From a virus (lineage: Duplodnaviria > Caudoviricetes): 64,000 nt of DNA. The notes beneath the pieces were generated by a model that was given only the letters and a program-made list of their open reading frames with translations, was not told the DNA's origin and made no database searches. The stretch is taken from the IMG/VR virus record IMGVR_UViG_3300010882_000012, one strand, 5' to 3'. Position numbers and translations under genes: made by a program. Below, piece by piece: positions 10,357 through 55,486 of this stretch. The stretch's first letter is position 1, and each line of letters begins with the position of its first letter.

Positions 10357-10415
10357 GTAAAAATACTAAAAATATTAATACTAAACTACAATTTAAGAAA
10401 AAAGTTACTAACAAT
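10357..10415 (-). promoter_or_regulatory. Conserved phage promoter motif copy 1 (ATTGTTAGTAAC-N37-GTATTTTTAC)
   Basis: One of 16 copies with 58-59 bp span, upstream of a gene start. Confidence 0.85.
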
Positions 10416-10820
10416 TTAAGCATCAATTTTTAACTCAATTTCTAAAGTAGTTATTCCTTCTTTACCAAATTTTGTAACAACTGAATAAACATGCCTACCA
10501 CCTCTTTGTGGATGAAAATAGTCTTGTTGTAAGTATGTTAGATATTCTGCAAAATCTTCTATCTCTTCAACTATTCTACCAACTTGTTTAAAACTTAAGC
10601 CTCCAATACAAACATGAACTATTGGAACATTCTTAAAAATTAAACTGTCTCTCATAGTTGTTCTTTGAGAAACCATTTTAATTACATCTTTAAGTGCTTT
10701 ATCATAATTATTATAAAGCCAAGCCCAAAAATCATCAGTAGATTCAATTTTGTAATTATTGATAAAATAGTTTTCAAATTTTTTCTGAAGATAGGATAAT
10801 CTTTTTTCTGTTATTTCCAT
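10416..10820 (-). CDS. Hypothetical protein
   Basis: 134-aa packed ORF. Confidence 0.7.
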   Translation of the reverse strand: MEITEKRLSYLQKKFENYFINNYKIESTDDFWAWLYNNYDKALKDVIKMVSQRTTMRDSLIFKNVPIVHVCIGGLSFKQVGRIVEEIEDFAEYLTYLQQDYFHPQRGGRHVYSVVTKFGKEGITTLEIELKIDA

Positions 10821-21109: not shown

Positions 21110-21592
21110 TCATTTTATTATTCCAAAGTGTTTTCTAAGTTCGTTTAACTCTTCTGTATATGGCATCTTATTTTTATTTTTTAATATATTTGCATAATTT
21201 TTTGCACTTAATTTATCTTTAGGTTTGGAAACTTTTTCTCCAATCAATCCTTTTACATCTCTACCAACATGATAACCGTCACAAATTTTACAATAATATG
21301 CTACAAAATTAATACCATGTTTTTCAATCATTTTTAAAGCAGCCTTTTGTGCTTTCTTTAAAGTTTCAAATCTTTTCTTTTCTTTATTACCATGAAAATG
21401 ATCTTGAATTTGTTGTTTTGTACATTCTATTGTTTTATTGCCAATATCAAAAGTTTTTACATGAGATTTCTTTTTCTTAACCTTTCTCGGAATTTTATTA
21501 AATTCTTGTTCTTCTAACTTAACTTGTTCTTCAAAAGAAAAATTAAAAATAAAATTAAAAAATTGAAAAATATTATAAAAAAACTTTTTCAT
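21110..21592 (-). CDS. Protein with YxCxxCxGxHxG zinc motif
   Basis: KRFETLKKAQKAA...AYYCKICDGYHVG. Confidence 0.7.
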   Translation of the reverse strand: MKKFFYNIFQFFNFIFNFSFEEQVKLEEQEFNKIPRKVKKKKSHVKTFDIGNKTIECTKQQIQDHFHGNKEKKRFETLKKAQKAALKMIEKHGINFVAYYCKICDGYHVGRDVKGLIGEKVSKPKDKLSAKNYANILKNKNKMPYTEELNELRKHFGIIK

Positions 21593-31409: not shown

Positions 31410-31450
31410 AAATTGTTAGTATTTTCTTGCAAATTGTTAGTAACTTTTTT
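31410..31450 (+). repeat. Two tandem copies of the promoter upstream box on the opposite strand
   Basis: AAATTGTTAGTATTTT and AAATTGTTAGTAACTTTTTT, 21 bp apart, with no canonical -7 box. Confidence 0.75.
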
Positions 31451-33520: not shown

Positions 33521-35236
33521 TTACTGCTTTACCACTTTAACCGTCCGTATCCCTATATCTGTATGAACTTTCACCATATAAACGCCAACGGATAAGTGGC
33601 TAATATTCAAACTATTATTTCTTATCTCAGTTTGTAGGATTTTACGCCCTTCAATGTTAAATACCTCTACGAATTTGACAACCTCATCGGTTTGAATATA
33701 GAGTTCCCCATTTGTAGGATTGGGGTAAACTACCAATTTTTCGATTTCGTTCTCCGTTACGCCAACTCCTATTTTAAATACAGCTGAAATTGTGCCATTC
33801 GATTGCACATTCGTAAATGTGTAGGTAGTTATAGCTCCTTTCGATTCACCGTTAACTAAAACGTTATCAATCACATAATTGGTTTTTGGAGCAATCGTAA
33901 ATGTAATATTGCCGCCTTCTTCAACTTTTGCATCGCCGAACGGATCTATCGTTCCCCAATCCGCATTATTTACGGTTGCTGTAATCGTATAAATATTGCC
34001 GTTTTGTTCATCCGTTTTGAATGTTGCCGAATTTGAAGGCGGTGATGCCAAATGTGTGGCGGTTTCCTTCTTTCGCTGTTTGAACGTATATGATGTGTTG
34101 GGCGTTAATCCGTTAAACACATTAGAGCTCTGCCAATTACCGTTATCCTTTTGATACTCACAACCTTCAACTGTATTCAATGTTATGGATGTAGGCGTTT
34201 TCGACTGTAATGTTGGTGTGGGCGGTGCTGTTTGGGTGGCTTTCGTAACTGTTGCTGTTGGTGATGAGGTCATACTGCCGATAACCTTTAAAGCCATATA
34301 ACCGCCGCTATTATCATAAAAATCTCCAACATAAATTGTTACGGCGATTTCTTTTCCGATATCATCAGCTGTTAAAGTATAGGTTTTACTATTGCCGCCA
34401 TCCACCGTAAGATAATAATCATCAATAATCGTACCATTACGTTTCCACCCATATTTTATTATTTCATAAGGCCACATTGAAAAATTGGAATGATTTACTG
34501 TTAATGTTTGACCGAAAACCGGATTGCCGCTAATTGACAAATTGGCACTGATTACGTTGATTGTGAAGTCTTTAACGAAATCGTTTGGAAATATAATATA
34601 TGCACTACCATCTTCATTAGGATATTGTATGGTTGCTCTAATTGTTGTGACTCCTTCATTTTCAGCCAAAAACCGATAAGCCAAACCACCCAAATGAGTT
34701 AGTGTGGCGTTTGCAGATCCGGGGTCAACCATTGACCACACTATTGATGGATATGACTGATTGGCTTCATAAGGAACAAATATATTATTATCAATCGGCA
34801 TATACAATGGTATATTGGCGACAGCAGTAGTTGGGATGTTGATGATGTCGGTGACTGAGAGGATGGCAGAGAAGTTTTGATTAGGCAGATTTTCGGTAAG
34901 TGGCTCTATATAAATGGATTCGGGTACAAACCGATAACCTTCTTTTTCCGGTATGAGATCTCCAAAACCACCCAGTGGAACTCCTAATACGTAATTCCCA
35001 TTTGCATTAGTTGTAGTAGATAATATATCACATCGTATGGTTGTGTTGGGTAGTGGTTGAGATGTTTGATAAATTCTAACAGTACCGGATACAGTTACCC
35101 ATTGAGCATTCGCTTTCAACGGATTGACTATTGACATTATTATAAATCCCAAAACAACTATTATAAAAGCAATAGTTGAGGGAATTCCGGTACCCACTTC
35201 ATTAGGGTAAGGTTTTAAATTTAAAAGATTTTTCAT
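33521..35236 (-). CDS. Host-type secreted Ig/FN3-like multidomain protein with T9SS type A C-terminal sorting domain
   Basis: Signal peptide ending ANA-Q; beta-sandwich domains; C-terminal VVYPNPTNGELYI...VFNIEGRKI...ISHLSVGVYMVKV...KVVKQ. Confidence 0.9.
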   Translation of the reverse strand: MKNLLNLKPYPNEVGTGIPSTIAFIIVVLGFIIMSIVNPLKANAQWVTVSGTVRIYQTSQPLPNTTIRCDILSTTTNANGNYVLGVPLGGFGDLIPEKEGYRFVPESIYIEPLTENLPNQNFSAILSVTDIINIPTTAVANIPLYMPIDNNIFVPYEANQSYPSIVWSMVDPGSANATLTHLGGLAYRFLAENEGVTTIRATIQYPNEDGSAYIIFPNDFVKDFTINVISANLSISGNPVFGQTLTVNHSNFSMWPYEIIKYGWKRNGTIIDDYYLTVDGGNSKTYTLTADDIGKEIAVTIYVGDFYDNSGGYMALKVIGSMTSSPTATVTKATQTAPPTPTLQSKTPTSITLNTVEGCEYQKDNGNWQSSNVFNGLTPNTSYTFKQRKKETATHLASPPSNSATFKTDEQNGNIYTITATVNNADWGTIDPFGDAKVEEGGNITFTIAPKTNYVIDNVLVNGESKGAITTYTFTNVQSNGTISAVFKIGVGVTENEIEKLVVYPNPTNGELYIQTDEVVKFVEVFNIEGRKILQTEIRNNSLNISHLSVGVYMVKVHTDIGIRTVKVVKQ

Positions 35237-35545
35237 AAGATTAAATTTTTTTGATTATTGTTTGTTTGATTATTTTAATTTGTTGTAATCGAAATCAATG
35301 TATTGTTTTGGTTTCGCCGTTGTTATATCCAATTTGTGCAATATGATAAAGTAGGATAACAACATTAAACTGATGTGGACTGTAACTAAAGCTGCCATAA
35401 GATTAAAAATTGATTGAGCTTCCAAACTATTCTGAATTGTCGCAAAAGGCAACTACCTTATCAAACTTACCATTTTGAGAAAGTTCTCTAAATCGAAAAT
35501 CTGTTATTTCCTTAATTTGTCTCAATTTTCTGTTTGACAGTTTCA

Positions 35546-35869
35546 TTATGCTATTCTTAAAAAGTTTAATTTTTTAAAACATCTCCACTCATTTCTTTCT
35601 GTATCAAAGTAAGTAAAAACCTTGTCACTTCTATCATATCCTTTCGGTTGTTGCTCAATTGGTACTTTATCTAACATTAAGTGTCCATATGCTTCTCTTG
35701 TGGTACCATCTATCTTCTGAAAATAGAATTTTACAATTTCCAACCTCATCCTTTTCTTTAGATAGTACAATTGCCAAGCTAACTTTAATGCTTCTGAGAG
35801 ATTACATCCAGAAATTTTCACAAACTTCCAGGTCTCATTCATGATTTGTCTTTTGTCCTCTGTCTTCAT
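35546..35869 (-). CDS. SH3 beta-barrel (WYL_2-like) protein
   Basis: LSEALKLAW...VKFYFQKIDGTTREAYG...TYFDTERNEWRCFK. Confidence 0.8.
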   Translation of the reverse strand: MKTEDKRQIMNETWKFVKISGCNLSEALKLAWQLYYLKKRMRLEIVKFYFQKIDGTTREAYGHLMLDKVPIEQQPKGYDRSDKVFTYFDTERNEWRCFKKLNFLRIA

Positions 35870-37299: not shown

Positions 37300-37375
37300 A
37301 TAAAAATACCACTTTTTTCGATACGAGTTTCATTAAAAAGAAAAAAGTTACTAACAATTTGTGCTAGCAACTTTC
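37300..37375 (-). promoter_or_regulatory. Promoter motif copy 6 fused to terminator hairpin
   Basis: AAAGTTGCTAGC-acaaatt-GTTAGTAACTTT + T-run. Confidence 0.85.
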
Positions 37376-37399
37376 TTCACTATCAAAATTCAAAATTCT

Positions 37400-38665
37400 C
37401 TAAAATAATTTTTTCTGATCTTGTATTACAATATAACGATCTTCCATGCTGGATAATTTTGGTTTGGGAATCGGTACGATATACCGTGGATCTTTTTGTT
37501 GTTGAAAAAACAGACTACTTTTACTGTTAATAGGACCAATTGGCTGAAAATAATAACTGAAATCACTATTTTTATTACCATGTACTTTCTTTATAATCTG
37601 CATGATTTCATCTTTTGATAAAGAATGATTTTTTAATTGCATCGTAGATAAAATCATACCACGTGCTGACATATCATGTGGACAACGACCTAATCCTTTA
37701 CCACGTTGATATGGTTTTCTTTCTTTTGTTTCTACTACCGGAATTACTTTTTTGCAAGATTGTCTAACTTTTCCTTTTACAACAGGTTTTTCTACCGGAG
37801 CTTCTGTTACAAGTCTGAAAGTGGATTCCATTTTTGTAGCACCAGATTCTACTAATAGAAGAAAACGTTTATCAGTTTTATTCTGCTTCAAAAGAGAAGA
37901 AAATGAACCTACACCATTTGTACTCGGTTTTTGAAAATAATGGATAAAGCAATTGCAATTATCGACAGTTTTTTCTAAAGTAGGATAAGAGGTACCAAGA
38001 AGAAATTCAAGTACTTCTCTCATAGTAACATCTTTTCCTTGTGCTTGAATCCAATCTAAACCCAGAGTACGGAGAGATTTCTTTACAGGTTCTACTTTCT
38101 TAGATGTGGTTGCAACCTCATCTTCAATTGGTTGTGCTTGAACAGGCATCGGCGGAATATGACGACAAGCAAATCCATTTTTAAACATGAATTCTGCCAG
38201 TAAACCTTTTTGAACTAATTTAGAAAGCGATTCAGATAAAGCACCCAAGATAATGGATTCTTGCACATGTAACGGACAAGCTTTGTATGCATCTGCATTC
38301 ACATAGTTATTGTAAAGATCTCGCATTGCTAACGCATCATTGTGATCTTCATAGATAAGACCATCTGCCATAGTATTGTCCTTTTTACTAAGGATGATTG
38401 TTCCAGTTTTCATTTTGATATTGTTTAAAGTTAATTTTTGTTTTACCTCAGTTTTAAGTACTTGATTCCACCGTGCTGCTAGCATACTGTGACCGATGTG
38501 AAATCCGTTACAAATAGGGCATTGGTATGCATCAAATGGAGCTCCCATACTAAGTGTTACACCTTCTGCTGCTTTTTGTGCAATTTCCAACGTTTCATAT
38601 GCTTTCTTTACTTTGTTTCCTTTAGTAAAATGAGCATTTTTCTTTTGTTTTAGTGTTAGTTCCAT
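37400..38665 (-). CDS. Basic multidomain protein co-transcribed with PARP (Zn motif plus two repeated helical modules)
   Basis: YQCPICNGFHIGH; two repeats ending HYF...KTDKRFL and YYF...KDPRYI; starts 1 nt after the PARP stop. Confidence 0.8.
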   Translation of the reverse strand: MELTLKQKKNAHFTKGNKVKKAYETLEIAQKAAEGVTLSMGAPFDAYQCPICNGFHIGHSMLAARWNQVLKTEVKQKLTLNNIKMKTGTIILSKKDNTMADGLIYEDHNDALAMRDLYNNYVNADAYKACPLHVQESIILGALSESLSKLVQKGLLAEFMFKNGFACRHIPPMPVQAQPIEDEVATTSKKVEPVKKSLRTLGLDWIQAQGKDVTMREVLEFLLGTSYPTLEKTVDNCNCFIHYFQKPSTNGVGSFSSLLKQNKTDKRFLLLVESGATKMESTFRLVTEAPVEKPVVKGKVRQSCKKVIPVVETKERKPYQRGKGLGRCPHDMSARGMILSTMQLKNHSLSKDEIMQIIKKVHGNKNSDFSYYFQPIGPINSKSSLFFQQQKDPRYIVPIPKPKLSSMEDRYIVIQDQKKLF

Positions 38666-38666
38666 A

Positions 38667-39938
38667 TTAACGCTCTATAATTTCAACGATATAACGAATT
38701 GTTGACTGTTCTGTAGAATAAACCATAAACTCATTATTACGAATTGAAGTGCCGGCATGAGCATAAACACTATCAAAACCTTCACGATCAAGTTGTTTTT
38801 TATTTAAATCATAACAAGCCGATGTATGATTATAGATATGTTTTTGATTGCCCACATGAACATCATAGATTGCTAAGAAAGCTTTTTTGCTACAACCCTT
38901 TGCCCAATAAGAACCAGAAAGAGAAGTATATCCAATAGATTTTTGTGCTTTATCTGCAAAATAAACAGAATTTCCATACATTGCACCTGTAATTATTACA
39001 CCCGCCGGACGTATTAAAAGTCCGGTTTGCAAGATGTTCATCCAATTTTCATTTCTGCTACCATGCCAAAACAGTTCGCATTTTTGGTTTTTGGCTTTTG
39101 CAACATAGCTCTTAAAGTTTCCTTCTGTTTTTTTGTTTACCACAGAAAAAGCTCTTTTGTACTGACCGGAATTGTTTCCCATCATTTTCTTAATGAGTTC
39201 TGCTTCTTTAGAAGACACTTCTTTAACTTCTAGTCCAAGTACCTCAAGCATGTCCATAGTGCTCTTAGAATTGCCCGTTTGCGTCCTGGTGGCTTCTTTT
39301 TGTTTCTTTATTGCTTCAACCTGACCCGCCATAACGTCCAAAAGTTTTTGTTCATCATCTAGCATTCGTTGTAATGATGAGGTAGAGTATCCGCTTTCTA
39401 CAAGATGGTTTTTTACGTGAGCCATTTTTCTCGGTACTGTTCGATACAATTTCAACAAACAATCATTAATAGTTGTTGAAGTACTTTGATTTCTTAAATG
39501 ACCAACCAAGTTGTCAAGGATTTTTTGAGCCTCATCAACTTGTGCTTGTGTAACATCTTCTTGAGTTACAGAATAGTTTTCTTTAATGGTTTTGTTTGCA
39601 TATGCTTGGAGTTCGTCAATGAGTTGACGCACCATAGCATTCTGGATGGCGGTTACTTGTGCTCCGGTTGTAGCATCTTTGATATCGGCCTCAATCTTTT
39701 CAGTATAGAGGTGTGTGATATCATTGTAACCTTTTTTGGTTTTTTCACGATACTTTTTATCCCAATCCGACATAGGATAAGAGTGCTCTATGGAGGTAGA
39801 TTCTATCCTGCCATAAACCACTTTAAAATTTCCATCGTTCTGCTCGAACATATGGTAAAACTTGTTGTTATTGTCCCCTGTAACACAAACCAGTTTTTTA
39901 ACTTGTTTGCCTGGTACCGAGTAATCTGATATTTTCAT
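38667..39938 (-). CDS. PARP-family ADP-ribosyltransferase with N-terminal WGR-like domain
   Basis: NNNKFY...VVYGRI...EKTKKGY (WGR-like); FWHGS, GAMYGNSVYFADKAQKSIGY, RNNEFMVY = H-Y-E triad. Confidence 0.92.
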   Translation of the reverse strand: MKISDYSVPGKQVKKLVCVTGDNNNKFYHMFEQNDGNFKVVYGRIESTSIEHSYPMSDWDKKYREKTKKGYNDITHLYTEKIEADIKDATTGAQVTAIQNAMVRQLIDELQAYANKTIKENYSVTQEDVTQAQVDEAQKILDNLVGHLRNQSTSTTINDCLLKLYRTVPRKMAHVKNHLVESGYSTSSLQRMLDDEQKLLDVMAGQVEAIKKQKEATRTQTGNSKSTMDMLEVLGLEVKEVSSKEAELIKKMMGNNSGQYKRAFSVVNKKTEGNFKSYVAKAKNQKCELFWHGSRNENWMNILQTGLLIRPAGVIITGAMYGNSVYFADKAQKSIGYTSLSGSYWAKGCSKKAFLAIYDVHVGNQKHIYNHTSACYDLNKKQLDREGFDSVYAHAGTSIRNNEFMVYSTEQSTIRYIVEIIER

Positions 39939-39959
39939 ATGATATTGAATTTTGATAGT

Positions 39960-40018
39960 ACAAAAATACCGCTTTTTTCTTTACGATGAGAACCTAGATG
40001 GAAAAAGATACTAACAAT
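39960..40018 (-). promoter_or_regulatory. Promoter motif copy 7 (drives PARP unit)
   Basis: ATTGTTAGTATC...GTATTTTTGT, 59 bp. Confidence 0.85.
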
Positions 40019-40038
40019 TTCATGATAAGGTTTAAACT

Positions 40039-40127
40039 AAAAAAGTCCTTGATTACTCAAAGACTCTTTTAGACGTTCAAAAATCATTATTCACAAAATC
40101 TTGATAAATGAAAAAATCAAAAATTGT
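40039..40127 (-). ncRNA. Candidate ~85-nt U-rich small RNA with own promoter and terminator
   Basis: Lies between promoter copy 8 and hairpin terminator ~40039-40068; too short for a credible ORF. Confidence 0.55.
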
Positions 40128-40130
40128 ACT

Positions 40131-40189
40131 ACAAAAATATTGTAATTCTAGATATGAAAGTTTAGTTACATGAAAAAGTTACTAACAAT
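40131..40189 (-). promoter_or_regulatory. Promoter motif copy 8 (no downstream gene)
   Basis: 59-bp motif. Confidence 0.8.
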
Positions 40190-40195
40190 CTGTTT

Positions 40196-40575
40196 AAAAA
40201 GAAAAACGCCCATAGATTCTTTCTGGGCGCTTCTCGTCAGATTTTTGGGCGAAGGTTCTGTAACACCTTTTCTGGCAGCCTAATGGACCTAGTTGAAATC
40301 AATTGTTTTCTGTCCCGGCAGCATGCCCCATAAACCAAGATTCATTTCATGTTCAGGTTCTTGGTCGACCTGATTGCCGGCAAGGTGTTTTCGCTTTCGC
40401 TACGGATTACCTTCGGTGCCGGCAGGCATTCTAAAGACCTGACTCGCGATTCCCGAACGGTTCGCATTATAGCGGCGGGCTCGAGGAGGTCTGGTTTTTC
40501 CGAGTTGACGTTAGGATTCCGCGCGGAGATTCCTGGTTTCTGATCAGCCTACCAGGTAGTGTCAATCGGATGAGA
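40196..40575 (-). ncRNA. Candidate ~370-nt structured non-coding RNA (RNA-A)
   Basis: About 50% GC by hand count (187/370 for 40201-40570); multiple nested helices; own promoter (copy 9) and terminator (CGCCCA...TGGGCG + T-run). Confidence 0.75.
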
Positions 40576-40577
40576 TT

Positions 40578-40635
40578 GTAAAAATACTAAAAATATCAAT
40601 GCGAAAATTTAAAAAGAGAAAAAGTTACTAACAAT
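40578..40635 (-). promoter_or_regulatory. Promoter motif copy 9 (drives RNA-A)
   Basis: 58-bp motif followed by structured RNA instead of the usual A-rich leader. Confidence 0.85.
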
Positions 40636-40660
40636 TTAAACAATTTTTGATGAGGTTTAA

Positions 40661-40920
40661 AAAAGAAAAGAGTCCTTAGATTACTCTAGGACTCTCTTCA
40701 CCACCCAAATTGCTATTTGATTCCCCAATAGGTTGCAACCCTCCCAAGATTTCGGCATAGGTTCTTGGTTGACCGTCTTCTAGGTTGCTGGCGGTAATAC
40801 GCTTTAAAAGCTTCCGCATCTTGCATTAACCTAATCGTGATTTTTCACCCCGACCACACTATTTGGTTGTTTTCAGCCCGGTTGTGAACCTCCTCGATTA
40901 CTCGTTCGAGTCGACAATAG
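40661..40920 (-). ncRNA. Candidate ~220-nt structured RNA (RNA-B) plus terminator, in the 3' region of 40924..41751
   Basis: GC-rich hairpins; shares GGTCRACCAAGAACCT...AATCTTGG with RNA-A; terminator ~40661-40698. Confidence 0.65.
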
Positions 40921-40923
40921 ATA

Positions 40924-41751
40924 TTAAAACATGTCTGCTTTTAAAATACGGATACGAACATCCGGATAAGGAACTCCAGTATAACGAGAATAAGCAGCTT
41001 TTGCTTGATTTTTTGTCATTACAGCATCATAATAACGCTCTTCCTCATCCGGGAATTTAACAGGATGTCCAAAACAAACATAATCTCCTTTTTCAGGATA
41101 TGTAATACCTGCATCCTTATCATCAGTATCATCAATATCATCTTCAAGACGATATTGAGAATTTGCAAGCGCGCAAGGTTCATCATCAACTGTTGAAAAA
41201 AGCTCTGGATGGAATTCTTCAAGTTCTTCTAACGTAATTTCACCATAATGGATATTGGCTAAGTACTTTTTCAAATTTTCGCGGGTACCGGTCAAATTTG
41301 CGGAGGTGTTTCCAGTTACTTCAATTTCCAAATTGTAGTTTTGCAACACCTCTAAGGCCTCATCAAGTTCTTCTTCATCACATACCCAATCAACATCAAC
41401 AATGAATTGGTCATTAAGTCCGTAAAGGTCTGTAACCATTGCATTTACGGCTTGGTCATGTGCATGATCTTCATCATTCATTGCATTCAAAATGGTAAGC
41501 GCACGGAGATCATCCATAGCTTGTGCATCACAAAGAGATTTGAAGTAAATCCGGTAGTCTCCATTGTGTCTCCAGTCTATAACACCCTCATTTTTGAGGT
41601 CTTGCATGAAAGTTGAAACAATTTGCTGCGTTGCCCAAAAATCGTTGGCGCGTAATTCGTTTTTAACTTCTAAAGTTGTGGTTTCTCCGTTCAATTCGAT
41701 TAGAGTTTGTGCAACCACTTGCACATCATTTTTTGTAGTTGTCTTTTTCAT
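40924..41751 (-). CDS. Acidic multidomain protein with winged-helix-like N terminus
   Basis: TTTLEVKNELRANDFWATQQIVSTFMQDL...YRIY; D/E-rich middle. Confidence 0.8.
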   Translation of the reverse strand: MKKTTTKNDVQVVAQTLIELNGETTTLEVKNELRANDFWATQQIVSTFMQDLKNEGVIDWRHNGDYRIYFKSLCDAQAMDDLRALTILNAMNDEDHAHDQAVNAMVTDLYGLNDQFIVDVDWVCDEEELDEALEVLQNYNLEIEVTGNTSANLTGTRENLKKYLANIHYGEITLEELEEFHPELFSTVDDEPCALANSQYRLEDDIDDTDDKDAGITYPEKGDYVCFGHPVKFPDEEERYYDAVMTKNQAKAAYSRYTGVPYPDVRIRILKADMF

Positions 41752-42264: not shown

Positions 42265-42323
42265 GTAAAAATACTGCTTTTTTCTTTATAATGAGGCCCT
42301 AGATAGAAAAAGTTACTAACAAT
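42265..42323 (-). promoter_or_regulatory. Promoter motif copy 10
   Basis: 59-bp motif. Confidence 0.85.
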
Positions 42324-49040: not shown

Positions 49041-49874
49041 TTAGATCCATTCTATTACAGTCGGATCATAGTTTTTGTACATCGGAGTTTTGTAATCCTT
49101 TTCTGTTAATTTGTACCATTGAAAGTGTTTTGCAAGTTCGTTAAATTCTTTCACAACTTCTTTTTTAATTTTCTTGTTGTCAAAACGATAGTGTGAAAAA
49201 GTCATACCACAATCTGAATCAGTGTAAGAATCACATGCCGATTTTGTAATTTTAATAGCTTTTTCTATTGCTTCTAAAACAGTCTCTCTTGTTACTAATG
49301 GTATTTCTTCAACTGGTTCCGGTTCATTAATAACATTGATGTGATTAAGTTTTAAAATTGCAATTGCTTGACGATGAGATTCATCTGTAACACAAGCACA
49401 ACAACTTGCATCTACAGTAATTTTGGCTTTACGATAGATTGCTGATAAGATAATAGCATTTTGTAAAACACAAATTCCGGTACACAATCCAAAAAGTTCA
49501 ATTTCATCAATATCCTCTTCATAGATATTATAGGATTCAAAAAACTCTTGCCATTTTACAGTACCATGTGCAAACTTTGTAATAGCACTTGAATTTTGTT
49601 CTAAGAGTTCTTTCAGTTCCGGATGTAATTCAGCTCCAGGAGTATCATAAACACAATGACATACACGTAAGTCTCTACCTTCTAAAGTATGCTCATACTT
49701 GTATGGATCCATTGGATGATTATGGTTGTCAAAAGAATGTGCAATAAAATCTCCATTCTCTATGGCTTTTTCAATTTTAGTTTTACAGTTTGCTATGATA
49801 GCATGTGCATGTGGAGAACCTAAAGTTCCTGTAATAAAATCATTTTCTAAGTCGATTGCTAAAGTAATTTTCAT
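49041..49874 (-). CDS. pncA: Nicotinamidase (isochorismatase family) with extra C-terminal domain
   Basis: AIDLENDF..GTL, metal-binding D-x-H and HC, TKF, GLCTGICV catalytic Cys; adjacent to nadE. Confidence 0.8.
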   Translation of the reverse strand: MKITLAIDLENDFITGTLGSPHAHAIIANCKTKIEKAIENGDFIAHSFDNHNHPMDPYKYEHTLEGRDLRVCHCVYDTPGAELHPELKELLEQNSSAITKFAHGTVKWQEFFESYNIYEEDIDEIELFGLCTGICVLQNAIILSAIYRKAKITVDASCCACVTDESHRQAIAILKLNHINVINEPEPVEEIPLVTRETVLEAIEKAIKITKSACDSYTDSDCGMTFSHYRFDNKKIKKEVVKEFNELAKHFQWYKLTEKDYKTPMYKNYDPTVIEWI

Positions 49875-49886
49875 ATGATTAAGTTT

Positions 49887-50780
49887 TTAAAGTTGAACAT
49901 TTTTAATTAATTTGAACATTGGTATGGCTTTAAGTTTATGCTGCGACATCAGATTTCTTCCCATTACTGTTTTCACTATACCGGGTCGGATATTTTCATT
50001 TGCAATAAATTCCGGTGTCGCATAAAGTATGAAATCATCAAGTTGTTCATATGAAAATCCAAGTTCTTCTTCATCAGATTGACCTTCCCAAAGATCAGCA
50101 CTTGGTTTTTCATTGATGATAGATTTCGGAACACCAAGATATTCAGCAAGAACATAAACCTCTCTTTTTGTGCACCAACCGAGAGGATTAAGGTCACATG
50201 CACCATCGCCCCATTTTGTAAAATAGCCACAATAACGTTCTGAAAGATTGCCGGTACCTATTACAAAACGACTCATGAGTTGTGCCATTTGATAAAGGTG
50301 ATTCATTCGGATACGAGCACAAACATTAGCTTTTGCCAGATTTGCTGCTTCTGGTGTAAAAGATTTATCCCAAAAAAGACTATTTTCTGTAACAAGCATA
50401 GAATTGACTGTTTTGGTAATATTAAAAGTTTGCCATTCAAAGTCAAACTTGTCAACTAATTTCACACAGCGCTGCATAGAAGAGTTGTTTCCTCTTGACA
50501 TGGATTCTCCATAAGGCATGGATATGAGTTGCACCGGTACATTTGCAATTTGACAAAGTCTTGCAACAACAGAGCAATCTACACCGCCTGACATGCCAAG
50601 TACAACACCTTTGCGATTTGCTTTTGCTACAGCATTTGCAATCCAATCTGACATAAGATTAGCATAATGTGCAACATTTTTACTATCAATAATTTCTTGT
50701 TTTAGTTGAGCCGGCATGGGACAACTTTTGTTTAAATTTTCAGTATTTTCCATTTTTGTAATTTTAGAGGTTGTAAACAC
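49887..50780 (-). CDS. nadE: NH3-dependent NAD+ synthetase
   Basis: VLGMSGGVDC, ARIRM, GTGNLSE..GYFTKWGDG, KPSADLWEGQSDEEELG. Confidence 0.93.
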   Translation of the reverse strand: MFTTSKITKMENTENLNKSCPMPAQLKQEIIDSKNVAHYANLMSDWIANAVAKANRKGVVLGMSGGVDCSVVARLCQIANVPVQLISMPYGESMSRGNNSSMQRCVKLVDKFDFEWQTFNITKTVNSMLVTENSLFWDKSFTPEAANLAKANVCARIRMNHLYQMAQLMSRFVIGTGNLSERYCGYFTKWGDGACDLNPLGWCTKREVYVLAEYLGVPKSIINEKPSADLWEGQSDEEELGFSYEQLDDFILYATPEFIANENIRPGIVKTVMGRNLMSQHKLKAIPMFKLIKNVQL

Positions 50781-52461
50781 GTTTCATTTCTTTATTATAG
50801 AGAACTTTAATTTCATCCCATGAATTTAAGTAATAAAATTCTCCATCTTTGTAGAATTCTTTGAGTAAGTTTTTGTCTCCATATGCATCTGCTTCTTCAG
50901 GAGTCAAGTTGTCAATCATAGCATAGTTGTTTTTAGATTCATCCCAAATAACAACCGGTATACCGGTAGGAGATTTTTTAAAACTGTTCTTTTCAGATTT
51001 TACGAGTTTTTGAATTTTTTTGAAAACACCTGACATGATTTCTGCAATTCCTTTTAATGCAAAACCAAACGTATCTCTCGTAACATACTGATAAGTGAAT
51101 GAACCAATTCCAAAGCTAACGTTAATACTTGCAAATCCTTTGTCTCTAAGACGTTTGCAAATTTTGAAACATCTCTCAATTGTAATAGCATCACCGTAAG
51201 TAATTCCAATATGAGAATCATGTTCCTTAAAACCGTTTGCGTTTACAGTGCCACCGAATTCATTCCAAAGTGCTTCACACAATCCCAAATCTTCTACAGT
51301 CGGTGTGTACTCTTCATAGATATCTTTCCATGGATGATAAGCCGAAATCGAATGATCATCTTCTCTTGTTACTTTCCACCAGCTTCCATCTTTTAATCTG
51401 AAAATAACGCCTAATCTCATTTCAGCAAAACCATTATTATGATAGTATTTCTTTGCTTCTGCCATGGTTAAGAAAATTTTTGTTTCTCTTCCACAAACAA
51501 CTTCAACCGGATCACCACTGTCAGGGCGGATGAAAACTTTTCCAGGTCTTGATAAAATTTGAGGTTTTATCTCCGGCAATACAGTAGAGATAACATTCCA
51601 AAAATCGTAAGTATCTGAAACAATTGAGATGTTGCCGCTTGGATACTTCTTTGTAATAAGAGTAAGAAATCCACGAACCTCATCAATTCCCCAACTACAC
51701 ATTACAGAATGTTCGGTTGACGGATTACAAGAAATAGCTCCTTTTGGTTTTTGATAAAAAGCTTTAAGATAATTACGGACAGGAACAGTAGCTGAAACAT
51801 TAAAAGCAAGTAGATGTCCAGGACCTGTGCGATATGCTGCTTCCGGTTGATTCATGCCTCTCATTGAAAAGTCGCCGGCTTGATTATCAACTCGGACTTC
51901 ATCTACACCTGTTTCTCTTGCAAATTGGATGAGAATTTTTTTGTAAACGGATGAGATAGTCCCGGATGTCATTGGACTCCAGATGTAAGAAGAAAGTTGA
52001 GTTTCGATATAGCCAGGAATCCAGAAAAATCTTGGATCTGTATTCTCAATAGTAAACATTGCAACGCCAATAGGTACAAAAGTACCTTCCGCAAGTGCTT
52101 TTACCTTAATAGGAAGATATCCTAAAGCATGTAAAGCCCTAACATGTTCAGAACCATGATTAGCCGCCCATTCTGGATTTGTCTTTTTAAAGATATCTGT
52201 AATGGTCTCTTCGTATTCTGCAACTACATCTTCAACAGGTCTAGAGAAAAAGTAATCTTGGAAATTTTGTGTGATTTCTGCTAAAGCTCCTTGTAAAGAG
52301 TAAAAGCATACATGGTTAATTCCTTCTGCTCGTGACATCCGTGGAATCCAAGTTTCTAAAATCCATTCAATACCATCAGGATATTGGGACATGTGACAAA
52401 TTTTGTAGACATCTGTCATGTCCATTGGATTTTTGATCATTCTGTCGTTTAATTGAAACAT
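50764..52461 (-). CDS. NAMPT/NadV-family pyridine transferase, probably nicotinate-accepting
   Basis: TDVYKICH, DFSMRG, STEHS, SIVSDTYD, FIRPDSGDP, YGDAI, FGIGS, TRDTFGFA; SAT in place of the usual TDT. Confidence 0.9.
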   Translation of the reverse strand: MFQLNDRMIKNPMDMTDVYKICHMSQYPDGIEWILETWIPRMSRAEGINHVCFYSLQGALAEITQNFQDYFFSRPVEDVVAEYEETITDIFKKTNPEWAANHGSEHVRALHALGYLPIKVKALAEGTFVPIGVAMFTIENTDPRFFWIPGYIETQLSSYIWSPMTSGTISSVYKKILIQFARETGVDEVRVDNQAGDFSMRGMNQPEAAYRTGPGHLLAFNVSATVPVRNYLKAFYQKPKGAISCNPSTEHSVMCSWGIDEVRGFLTLITKKYPSGNISIVSDTYDFWNVISTVLPEIKPQILSRPGKVFIRPDSGDPVEVVCGRETKIFLTMAEAKKYYHNNGFAEMRLGVIFRLKDGSWWKVTREDDHSISAYHPWKDIYEEYTPTVEDLGLCEALWNEFGGTVNANGFKEHDSHIGITYGDAITIERCFKICKRLRDKGFASINVSFGIGSFTYQYVTRDTFGFALKGIAEIMSGVFKKIQKLVKSEKNSFKKSPTGIPVVIWDESKNNYAMIDNLTPEEADAYGDKNLLKEFYKDGEFYYLNSWDEIKVLYNKEMKRVYNL

Positions 52462-54523: not shown

Positions 54524-55000
54524 ACTCTATTTCCCATTCTCTTTCTTCTGTGGTTGCTTCCGACTGAACTACAAACTCTGGGAGAAGTTTGTTTCTCGTT
54601 TCACAAATTCAAGATACGTCTCACCACCAGATATTACCTGAATCTCCACGAGCTTAAATTCGATATGTTCTATACCTACTCGTTCTCTTAGTACTAATTA
54701 GATTAATTAAAGTTAGCGTTCTCATCAATTTCTCTGCTTAGTTATCATCAATCAAAATTCTATTTTATTATGCGCAAGTTTTAAAAAGTTTTAGAATTGT
54801 TGGAAAAAAATTGAAATTTTATCCGGTCTTTCATGTGCTTTACAAACTAAAGATTGACAACCGATTTCTTTTAGTGCACATTGTTGACAATCATTTAGTT
54901 GATATGATTTTACTACTTTGTATCGATTTCCTTTAAATCGGCATGTAGTTCCTAACTCTATGAAAAACTTTTTCTTCTTTTTCATATACTATCTATTTTA

Positions 55001-55030
55001 TAAAAAGAGCCTCAGATTTCTCTAAGGCTC
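55001..55030 (-). terminator. Intrinsic terminator
   Basis: AGAGCCTTAGA-gaaa-TCTGAGGCTCT + T-run. Confidence 0.8.
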
Positions 55031-55129
55031 TAGATGGTGGACCATCATGATTGCCGGTCTAATTTAATCATCCGGATGATGGTCCTTCCTGCCTGGCGAG
55101 GACTGCATTTCACCAGTCCGGAAAGTGTG

Positions 55130-55486
55130 TTATGATAACGGTTGTGAAGTTGTTGCACACCATGGACCTCTATTAGCTGCCCAGGACGTCTCACAACGGA
55201 GATTGATACTTGGAATAGCATAACAAACTTTGAGGTCACCAAGGTGGTCATTTACGCCCAAAAATTGAGCATCACGATAACCATATGCTTTGGCATATTT
55301 TTCAAAACGACTACGGATTGTTCTAACCGTACTTGCCCATTTTCTACGACCTTCTGAATTGTTGAGGGAGATAATGGTACTTTGAAGTGCACGATAAACA
55401 CCGTCACGACAATTTTCGTAAACTGCATTTGTACTTACAGCTTCTTCACGAGCTGATGTTGCTGGATTTTCTTTTTTTACTGACAT
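55130..55486 (-). CDS. Hypothetical protein (start corrected to MSVKK)
   Basis: ATG follows the promoter leader. Confidence 0.7.
   Translation of the reverse strand: MSVKKENPATSAREEAVSTNAVYENCRDGVYRALQSTIISLNNSEGRRKWASTVRTIRSRFEKYAKAYGYRDAQFLGVNDHLGDLKVCYAIPSINLRCETSWAANRGPWCATTSQPLS

Follow-up and report, generated by a model that had tools for sequence, protein, structure and literature searches.

A tandemly duplicated array of ORF-free, GC-rich predicted transcription units beside a PARP gene in an uncultured gut phage

What does a phage encode in the longest stretch of its sequence that lacks open reading frames (ORFs), and does this stretch belong to the system of the PARP gene that follows it? 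The locus in question lies in a 64,000-nt window (bases 63901-127900 of the 146-kb IMG/VR virus record IMGVR_UViG_3300010882_000012, which is ~56% complete) from an uncultured gut phage with a genome GC content of 0.30. Nearly all genes in the window and all genes at the array/PARP locus are on the minus strand; the features described below are on this strand unless stated otherwise, and their coordinates are those of the window. The initial annotation had proposed a module in which two longer RNAs (RNA-B and RNA-A), a short RNA, a WGR-type PARP, and a basic 421-aa protein act together. We find that the gap upstream of PARP is a real and unusual genome architecture, composed of tandemly duplicated, ORF-less, GC-rich transcription units (predicted) that probably encode an orphan RNA family. 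As an overall explanation, we regard it as moderately probable that the array is a lineage-specific, duplicated insertion with two real orphan RNAs and that its adjacency to PARP is incidental.

An ORF-free gap with three promoter cassettes and three terminators

The gap comprises 985 nt (39939-40923) between the stop of the gene for a 275-aa protein, here referred to as P0003 (40924), and the start of the PARP gene (39938). It is the longest stretch without ORFs of at least 70 aa in the 146-kb record and contains the largest GC island of the record, in line with the initial description of ~1 kb without a credible gene. No ORF in the gap exceeds 69 aa in any frame, each frame contains 16-21 stop codons of all three kinds, and reassignment of a single stop codon opens at most 128 aa. 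A Pfam search of the seven stop-to-stop frames of the gap gave no match even at E=1. Hidden coding was rejected because the stop reassignments and the frame search were both empty, and the same frames held no trace of a former ORF or protein family. Iterons or tandem repeats were not found in the gap beyond the promoter cassettes.

These cassettes are ~75 nt long and consist of a 17-mer box (ATTGTTAGTAACTTTTT), a -33-like element (TTTCGTA), a -7-like element (GTATTTTTAC), an A-rich leader, and an ATG. The box has 19 exact occurrences in the record, and with up to three mismatches it has 20 matches in the window versus 2.0 expected. On the minus strand of the window, boxes start at 10415, 19583, 33143, 36354, 37358, 40018, 40189, 40635, 42323, 44595, 46320, 47437, 48973, 54503, and 55577. 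Of the 25 cassette copies in the record, the canonical ones without an ATG ORF behind them are two of the gap copies, at 40635 and 40189; a divergent plus-strand copy at window position 31433 likewise has no ORF.

The gap holds three cassette copies and three dedicated intrinsic terminators, and one more terminator follows the 421-aa gene. This agrees with the order that had been claimed for the locus, i.e., RNA-B, RNA-A, the short unit, and the PARP/421-aa operon. The boxes are located at 40635-40619, 40189-40173, 40018-40002 (one mismatch), and, beyond the 421-aa gene, at 37358-37342. The RNA-A promoter cassette (40576-40635; box 40635-40619, -7-like element at ~40586-40578) is 72-86% identical to other cassettes over ~70 nt. 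The short-unit cassette spans 40125-40189 (box 40189-40173), and the cassette of the PARP operon together with its leader spans 39939-40018 (box 40018-40002, with the one mismatch). Terminators composed of a hairpin and a U tract end RNA-B (40699-40657), RNA-A (40235-40196), the short unit (40064-40039), and the 421-aa gene (37376-37342). In many copies, the box doubles as the 3' arm and U tract of the terminator hairpin of the preceding unit, and the 5' arm is variable; the PARP operon terminator (37342-37376) is of this kind, with a 3' arm and U tract that double as the promoter box of the next unit.

The terminators of RNA-B and the short unit had been described as near-identical, and their similarity indeed covers the terminator and the spacer and reaches into the promoter box that follows (81 aligned columns). 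The RNA-A terminator has the same loop and tail pattern (repeat family D5). The unit duplication that had been suggested is thus seen in the terminator-plus-box cassettes, which are duplicated, and also in the RNA-A and RNA-B bodies, which are paralogous.

The same ATTGTTAGTAACTTTTT cassette occurs in ~22 copies in the 217-kb phage G002 (IMGVR_UViG_3300010167_000012), which shares just 17 weak protein matches with the record and has neither PARP nor the array RNAs. That such distant phages have a cassette in common points to a host factor, or a phage-encoded transcription factor, that both of them share. The host probably belongs to the Bacteroidota, because the phage encodes a Por_Secre_tail protein and the promoter -7 element is of the TAnnTTTG kind, which we take to be the consensus for this element in these bacteria. 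The Por_Secre_tail (type IX secretion) signal is part of a 571-aa protein that is encoded, together with a 107-aa WYL_2 protein, just downstream of the PARP operon (window 33521-35869, minus strand).

RNA-A and RNA-B are diverged copies with a shared core

RNA-B (40657-40923) is a ~265-nt ORF-free tail that directly follows the P0003 stop codon and ends in a hairpin and U tract. It has no promoter of its own and forms the end of an operon whose promoter cassette is at 42323; its body (40702-40923) has a GC content of 0.46. RNA-A (40196-40575) is a ~375-nt ORF-free unit with its own promoter, a body (40238-40572) with a GC content of 0.51, and a terminator hairpin at 40235-40201.

Both bodies contain a core. 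In RNA-B (40734-40774) it is composed of GGUCAACCAAGAACCU, a loop, and AAUCUUGG, with a 6-bp CCAAGA/UCUUGG stem (repeat family D8), and in RNA-A (40326-40370) of GGUCGACCAAGAACCU, a loop, and AAUCUUGG. The cores thus share a 16-mer that is identical at 15 of 16 positions and is followed by the same 6-bp hairpin, and the flanks have diverged by many indels. The RNA-A core also contains a palindrome (GGTCGACC). The two bodies can be aligned co-linearly, with gaps, over ~210 nt with a score of 57.5, compared to 30.4 +/- 5.7 for dinucleotide shuffles, none of which reached 57.5 (0/1000). We read RNA-A and RNA-B as diverged tandem paralogs based on this alignment. No further paralog of either body was found within the genome. 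The consensus fold of the two paralogs was uninformative, and a 10-nt complementarity between RNA-A and RNA-B (ACCUCCUCGA / UCGAGGAGGU) was discarded because it is at chance level.

The phage G002 served as a positive control. Its GC islands without ORFs consist of at least 11 clustered tRNA genes, and some of these are fired from the shared cassette; in such genomes, ORF-free islands rich in GC thus mark genes for structural RNAs. The cluster (L098:9700-13520, corresponding to G002:149700-153520, minus strand) includes one gene with a long insertion (Rfam tRNA match at 10655-10787) and several sub-threshold tRNA-like matches.

A third GC-rich ORF-free tail of ~100 nt follows a gene that ends at 55130 (window 55000-55130, minus strand). 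Its terminator (55030) is similar to the RNA-B and short-unit terminators. This tail and RNA-A have CCGGCAAUCA..GGUC.ACCA in common, with a score at chance level.

The third unit in the gap differs in composition. It is ~86 nt long (40036-40124), has its own cassette and a body with a GC content of 0.21, and ends in a hairpin and six U residues. We considered it as an antisense small RNA directed at translation starts, and this was not borne out. The duplex energy averages -13.7 kcal/mol for start regions versus -13.5 kcal/mol for gene interiors, and in 52 of 60 dinucleotide shuffles the best target was at least as good as that of the unit itself (-20.8). The pairing is thus not specific, and the unit may be an empty duplicated cassette and not a functional small RNA.

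The array RNAs match no known RNA class

Rfam 15 at gathering thresholds gave no match in the whole window. When positions 39900-41000 were searched permissively, the best match was CsrC in RNA-B, with 22.2 bits against a gathering score of 61. Membership of RNA-B in CsrB/CsrC (RF00084) was rejected because of this low score and because much of the alignment is carried by the terminator. The Rfam tRNA model had no match in the same region at E<=10 with permissive filters, and ARAGORN found neither tRNA nor tmRNA genes in the window or in the whole 146-kb record, including at a lowered threshold. A retron msr-msd, the template of a diversity-generating retroelement, and a group II intron were rejected as well, because no match to the reverse transcriptase domain RVT_1 was found in the record and neither RNA body is present a second time in the genome.

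Homologs were searched for in several collections. The RNA bodies had no blastn match among 50,697 phage records. Searches for the core plus hairpin pattern returned 0 matches in metagenome contigs and 0 in genome contigs, and 22 matches to the 16-nt core in IMG/VR were regarded as chance because all of them lack flanking similarity. BLAST of the RNAs against the related phage records G001 and G002 and against the loci of PARP and its partner recovered promoter cassettes only. A covariance model of the core, run over 0.5 Mb of sequence from this and related phages, found just the two known copies.

Copies identical to the phage region are present in ENA, Logan, and JGI assemblies; the JGI sets (3300010162 and 3300010049) are of the termite-gut type. 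We read seven contigs with the array region from several samples, which represent four loci and are 100% identical.

A predicted winged-helix protein recurs beside the PARP gene

P0003 (40924-41751) is an acidic protein (isoelectric point (pI) 4.3) that combines a winged helix at the N terminus with a small C-terminal domain. Its AlphaFold model has a predicted local distance difference test (pLDDT) score of ~97 for the N-domain, and Foldseek matches it to winged helix-turn-helix regulators. By tblastn and alignment, P0003 is orthologous to the upstream neighbors of PARP in five loci (L044-L047 and L103), among which L044-L047 hold the closest relatives of the PARP. The closest PARP relatives have 55-58% identity. 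Compared to the ~175-aa orthologs, P0003 has an extra acidic insert of ~100 aa. In nine loci (L044-L047, L103, L185, L187, L188, and L191), these orthologs end 18-22 nt before the PARP start.

Among 23 metagenome loci that hold the P0003 family, 14 have a PARP within 4 kb, and ~11 of these are directly adjacent, in either order. The pairing is one-sided, as a winged-helix protein is encoded within 3.5 kb in only 11 of 80 IMG/VR PARP loci. One member of the P0003-like family itself carries a WGR domain, and one member of the winged-helix family also matches WYL_2. Based on these comparisons, phage PARPs of this clade have as their recurrent companion a small, predicted winged-helix protein that is encoded on either side of the PARP gene.

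The gap seen here has no counterpart at these loci. Across 78 IMG/VR loci, the ORF-free sequence upstream of PARP measures 52 nt in the median and 257 nt at most; it is never GC-rich and is AT-rich where it is long. In total, this upper limit of 257 nt holds for about 90 PARP relatives. An RNA array was found at none of these 78 loci, at none of the seven closest relatives, and at none of the PARP-bearing loci among the 23 winged-helix loci. The link between the RNAs and PARP that had been proposed initially is not supported by synteny, in that PARP occurs without the RNAs in every relative seen. At one further locus (L199), an apparent long ORF-free stretch after a P0003-like gene was dismissed as an ORF that runs off the contig end.

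The gene order winged-helix protein, PARP, and Pyr_excise (T4 endonuclease V-like) recurs in L044-L047. Genes downstream at these loci encode AMMECR1, an AAA_33/PNKP-like kinase, NT5C, and a metallophosphatase. This DNA/RNA-repair setting of the nearest PARP clade is consistent with a damage-sensing role for the phage PARP.

Origin and possible roles of the array

An insertion inside an existing gene pair is indicated because P0003 orthologs abut PARP in relatives and the other PARP loci lack the array. We thus propose that the 985-nt gap is a lineage-specific insertion between P0003 and PARP that was amplified by tandem duplication. In the array, promoter and terminator cassettes of the phage itself frame two paralogous GC-rich bodies and one short AT-rich unit. 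RNA-A and RNA-B would make up a new orphan family of real non-coding RNAs that are stable and structured, as suggested by their canonical promoters and terminators, the lack of coding capacity, the high GC content of both copies, and the conserved core. The shared 16-nt core hairpin is a putative binding site for a common factor. According to this proposal, the RNAs would have come to lie beside PARP by insertion and not as a regulatory part of the PARP system.

Several observations weigh against the proposed insertion of a functional RNA family. The alignment score of the two bodies (57.5) barely exceeds that of the best shuffle (57.0). The bodies fold no better than shuffles (z-scores of -1.4 for RNA-A and +0.7 for RNA-B), and the better folding values of the full units owe much to the terminators. 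No homolog of RNA-A or RNA-B was found outside this phage in the phage records, IMG/VR, metagenome contigs, and prokaryote genomes that were searched, and therefore there is no covariation. Population variation among the seven contigs and four loci that carry the region is nil. Finally, an insertion that sits exactly inside a recurrent PARP pair could reflect a functional tie that is invisible to single-lineage synteny.

Some of these points would fit a gap without any function, i.e., a decaying remnant of GC-rich DNA from a foreign source that would have been trapped, duplicated together with the cassettes, and maybe transcribed, with no role. The RNAs are orphans in the collections searched, their folding is not exceptional, cassette duplication is evident, and the AT-rich short unit, which has no specific targets, looks like an empty cassette. 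Yet neutral decay would be expected to erase what the two diverged copies have kept, namely a GC content of 0.46-0.51 in a genome of 0.30, a core with 15 of 16 positions identical, and the same hairpin. Full canonical promoters and strong terminators are also retained, and a former ORF or protein family has left no trace. We favor selection over decay because both diverged copies keep a high GC content together with the core, and we consider a functionless gap rather unlikely.

A connection to PARP would be of a different nature. The RNAs might work with the PARP system as activators, restrainers, or decoys that bind either the WGR domain or the winged-helix partner; another possibility is that they are ADP-ribosylation substrates. 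The position of the array, exactly between the two members of the recurrent pair of P0003-like protein and PARP, is suggestive, as is the presence of a WGR domain in one P0003-like protein. WGR domains of PARP1-3 bind nucleic acid, and HaPARP requires DNA for its activity (PMC8120803). However, the other PARP loci examined have no such insertion or GC-rich gap, neither BLAST nor the core covariance model found anything similar near PARP elsewhere, and the promoters are the general cassette of the phage and not specific to PARP. We therefore regard a PARP-linked role as unlikely. The more specific version, in which RNA-A and RNA-B are a new family that acts with the winged-helix/PARP pair, either as ligands that switch the WGR-PARP on or off or as RNAs that are coupled to proteins or end-modified by PARP, appears slightly more doubtful still. 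The island could also act as DNA instead of RNA, e.g., as a platform to which the winged-helix protein binds or as a signal for packaging or replication. It adjoins the gene for a predicted DNA-binding protein and contains the GGTCGACC palindrome in the RNA-A core, but its framing by promoters and terminators fits transcription units, the cumulative GC skew has no turn at the array region, and iterons or tandem repeats beyond the cassettes are absent. We consider such a DNA element very improbable.

Relation to known phage elements

Phage T4 produces two stable RNAs, species 1 and 2 (RNA C and RNA D), to which no role has been assigned; they are encoded inside the tRNA cluster and are processed with the tRNAs. 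The predicted transcripts of the array resemble them in being phage transcripts of small to medium size that lack ORFs and have signals of their own. They differ in that the array is in a record without a tRNA gene in 146 kb, and no sequence or Rfam relation to the T4 RNAs was found. Morons are promoter-gene-terminator units between conserved phage genes and are often of deviant composition. Like morons, the array units have their own promoter and terminator, lie between genes that are adjacent in relatives, and have a GC content far from that of the genome. In contrast, their cargo is non-coding and their promoters are the phage's own repeated cassette and not foreign. A resemblance of RNA-B to the CsrB/CsrC sponge RNAs (RF00084) consists of the 22.2-bit match and several GGA-containing loops, but the score is far below the required 61.

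If the two GC-rich units are real RNAs, they would extend the short list of stable RNAs from phages by an orphan family, and moron-type insertions could then carry RNA cargo that is built from the phage's own cassettes. Should the PARP-linked role be true, the array would provide a natural RNA-controlled or RNA-directed PARP in a bacterial virus. The finding on the PARP neighbor is more solid and more general than that on the RNAs, and it makes the winged-helix protein the first one to consider as a possible activator or director of phage PARPs, whose role is still an open question (PMC7824862, PMC8120803).

The phage PARP and its 421-aa operon mate

The PARP (38667-39938) has 423 aa and comprises a probable, divergent WGR domain, a helical domain, and a catalytic domain with an H-Y-E triad. 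The catalytic domain is clear, with a match to Pfam PARP catalytic (PF00644) over residues 243-419 (E=2e-21, 76.7 bits versus a cut-off of 26.7) that is shared by 43 of 43 aligned homologs. H292, Y326, and E403 are invariant in these 43 homologs and correspond in the alignment to the human PARP1 motifs HGS, Y, and E. The WGR domain (PF05406) is below threshold in the phage protein (13.2 bits, E=0.099, cut-off 22), which has YGR in place of WGR, and PF05406 is matched by seven of the 43 full-length homologs (best E-value 1.6e-6). The alignment of the family profile with human PARP2 runs from residue 18-20 to residue 369. The N-terminal domain is probably a divergent WGR, because homologs match PF05406 and the profile aligns to PARP2, which favors the designation as a WGR-type PARP. 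The profile also aligns to a PARP1 fragment with the helical and catalytic domains, where residues 126-240 fall on the helical part (4rv6 residues 41-135); Pfam PARP_reg had no match in the phage PARP.

The family is large, with more than 2,000 proteins at E<=1e-10, which are mostly ~420 aa long and in many cases encoded on 100-500 kb contigs; relatives are encoded in 258 IMG/VR stretches. PARPs of jumbo phages and their co-occurrence with NAD+ synthesis genes have been cataloged (PMC7824862, PMC11662467). Judged by its sequence, the phage PARP is an ordinary member of these WGR-helical-catalytic PARPs. With its helical and H-Y-E catalytic domains, the probable WGR domain, and a length of ~420 aa, it resembles HaPARP from Herpetosiphon aurantiacus, CdPARP from Clostridioides difficile, and the jumbo-phage PARPs. 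Unlike at the loci of these bacterial and jumbo-phage PARPs, an ORF-free array between PARP and its winged-helix neighbor and a 421-aa orphan after PARP are found only in the phage studied here.

NAD+ salvage genes are located ~10 kb from PARP (window 49041-52461, minus strand); the products are NAMPT (565 aa, phrog_448, E=1e-146) and an NAD-synthetase-like protein (297 aa, phrog_11189), next to a 277-aa protein (phrog_19305). The NAMPT and NAD-synthetase-like genes fit the pattern of NAD-jumbo phages (PMC11662467). PARG (PF10021) and macrodomain (PF01661) proteins had no match in the 146-kb record, and control genomes did match. We thus rejected a writer-eraser system of PARP and PARG within this ~56% complete record.

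The 421-aa protein (37400-38665) starts 1 nt after the PARP stop. It had been annotated as a basic Zn-motif protein. The basic character is confirmed (pI 9.5), and just a single Cys-x2-Cys-x3-His motif is kept in the sole full-length homolog. This homolog, the only one among 1.8 billion cluster representatives, has 32% identity over the matched stretches (phmmer) and 27% in a pairwise BLASTP and is located in a phage contig without PARP nearby. The 421-aa protein is not encoded next to PARP at any of the 80 IMG/VR PARP loci, the 23 winged-helix loci, or the seven closest relatives. The proposed module of PARP and 421-aa protein is thus not upheld, and the comparisons suggest that the protein is a local operon mate of PARP only, an accident of operon structure. 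The locus warns against reading adjacency in a single genome as a module. Kinship to the winged-helix family was rejected (hhalign probability 0.7%). The ESM Atlas offered no usable neighbor for the 421-aa protein, and its predicted model was poor (pLDDT 0.56).

The N-terminal ~55 aa of the protein (CPxCNxxH) correspond to phrog_14788, and the remainder matches no family. This domain (residues 10-65, window 38500-38635) is found as small stand-alone proteins in many phages. It also occurs in a second ORF of the window (21110-21592) and as three tandem copies in G002 (203199-203840).

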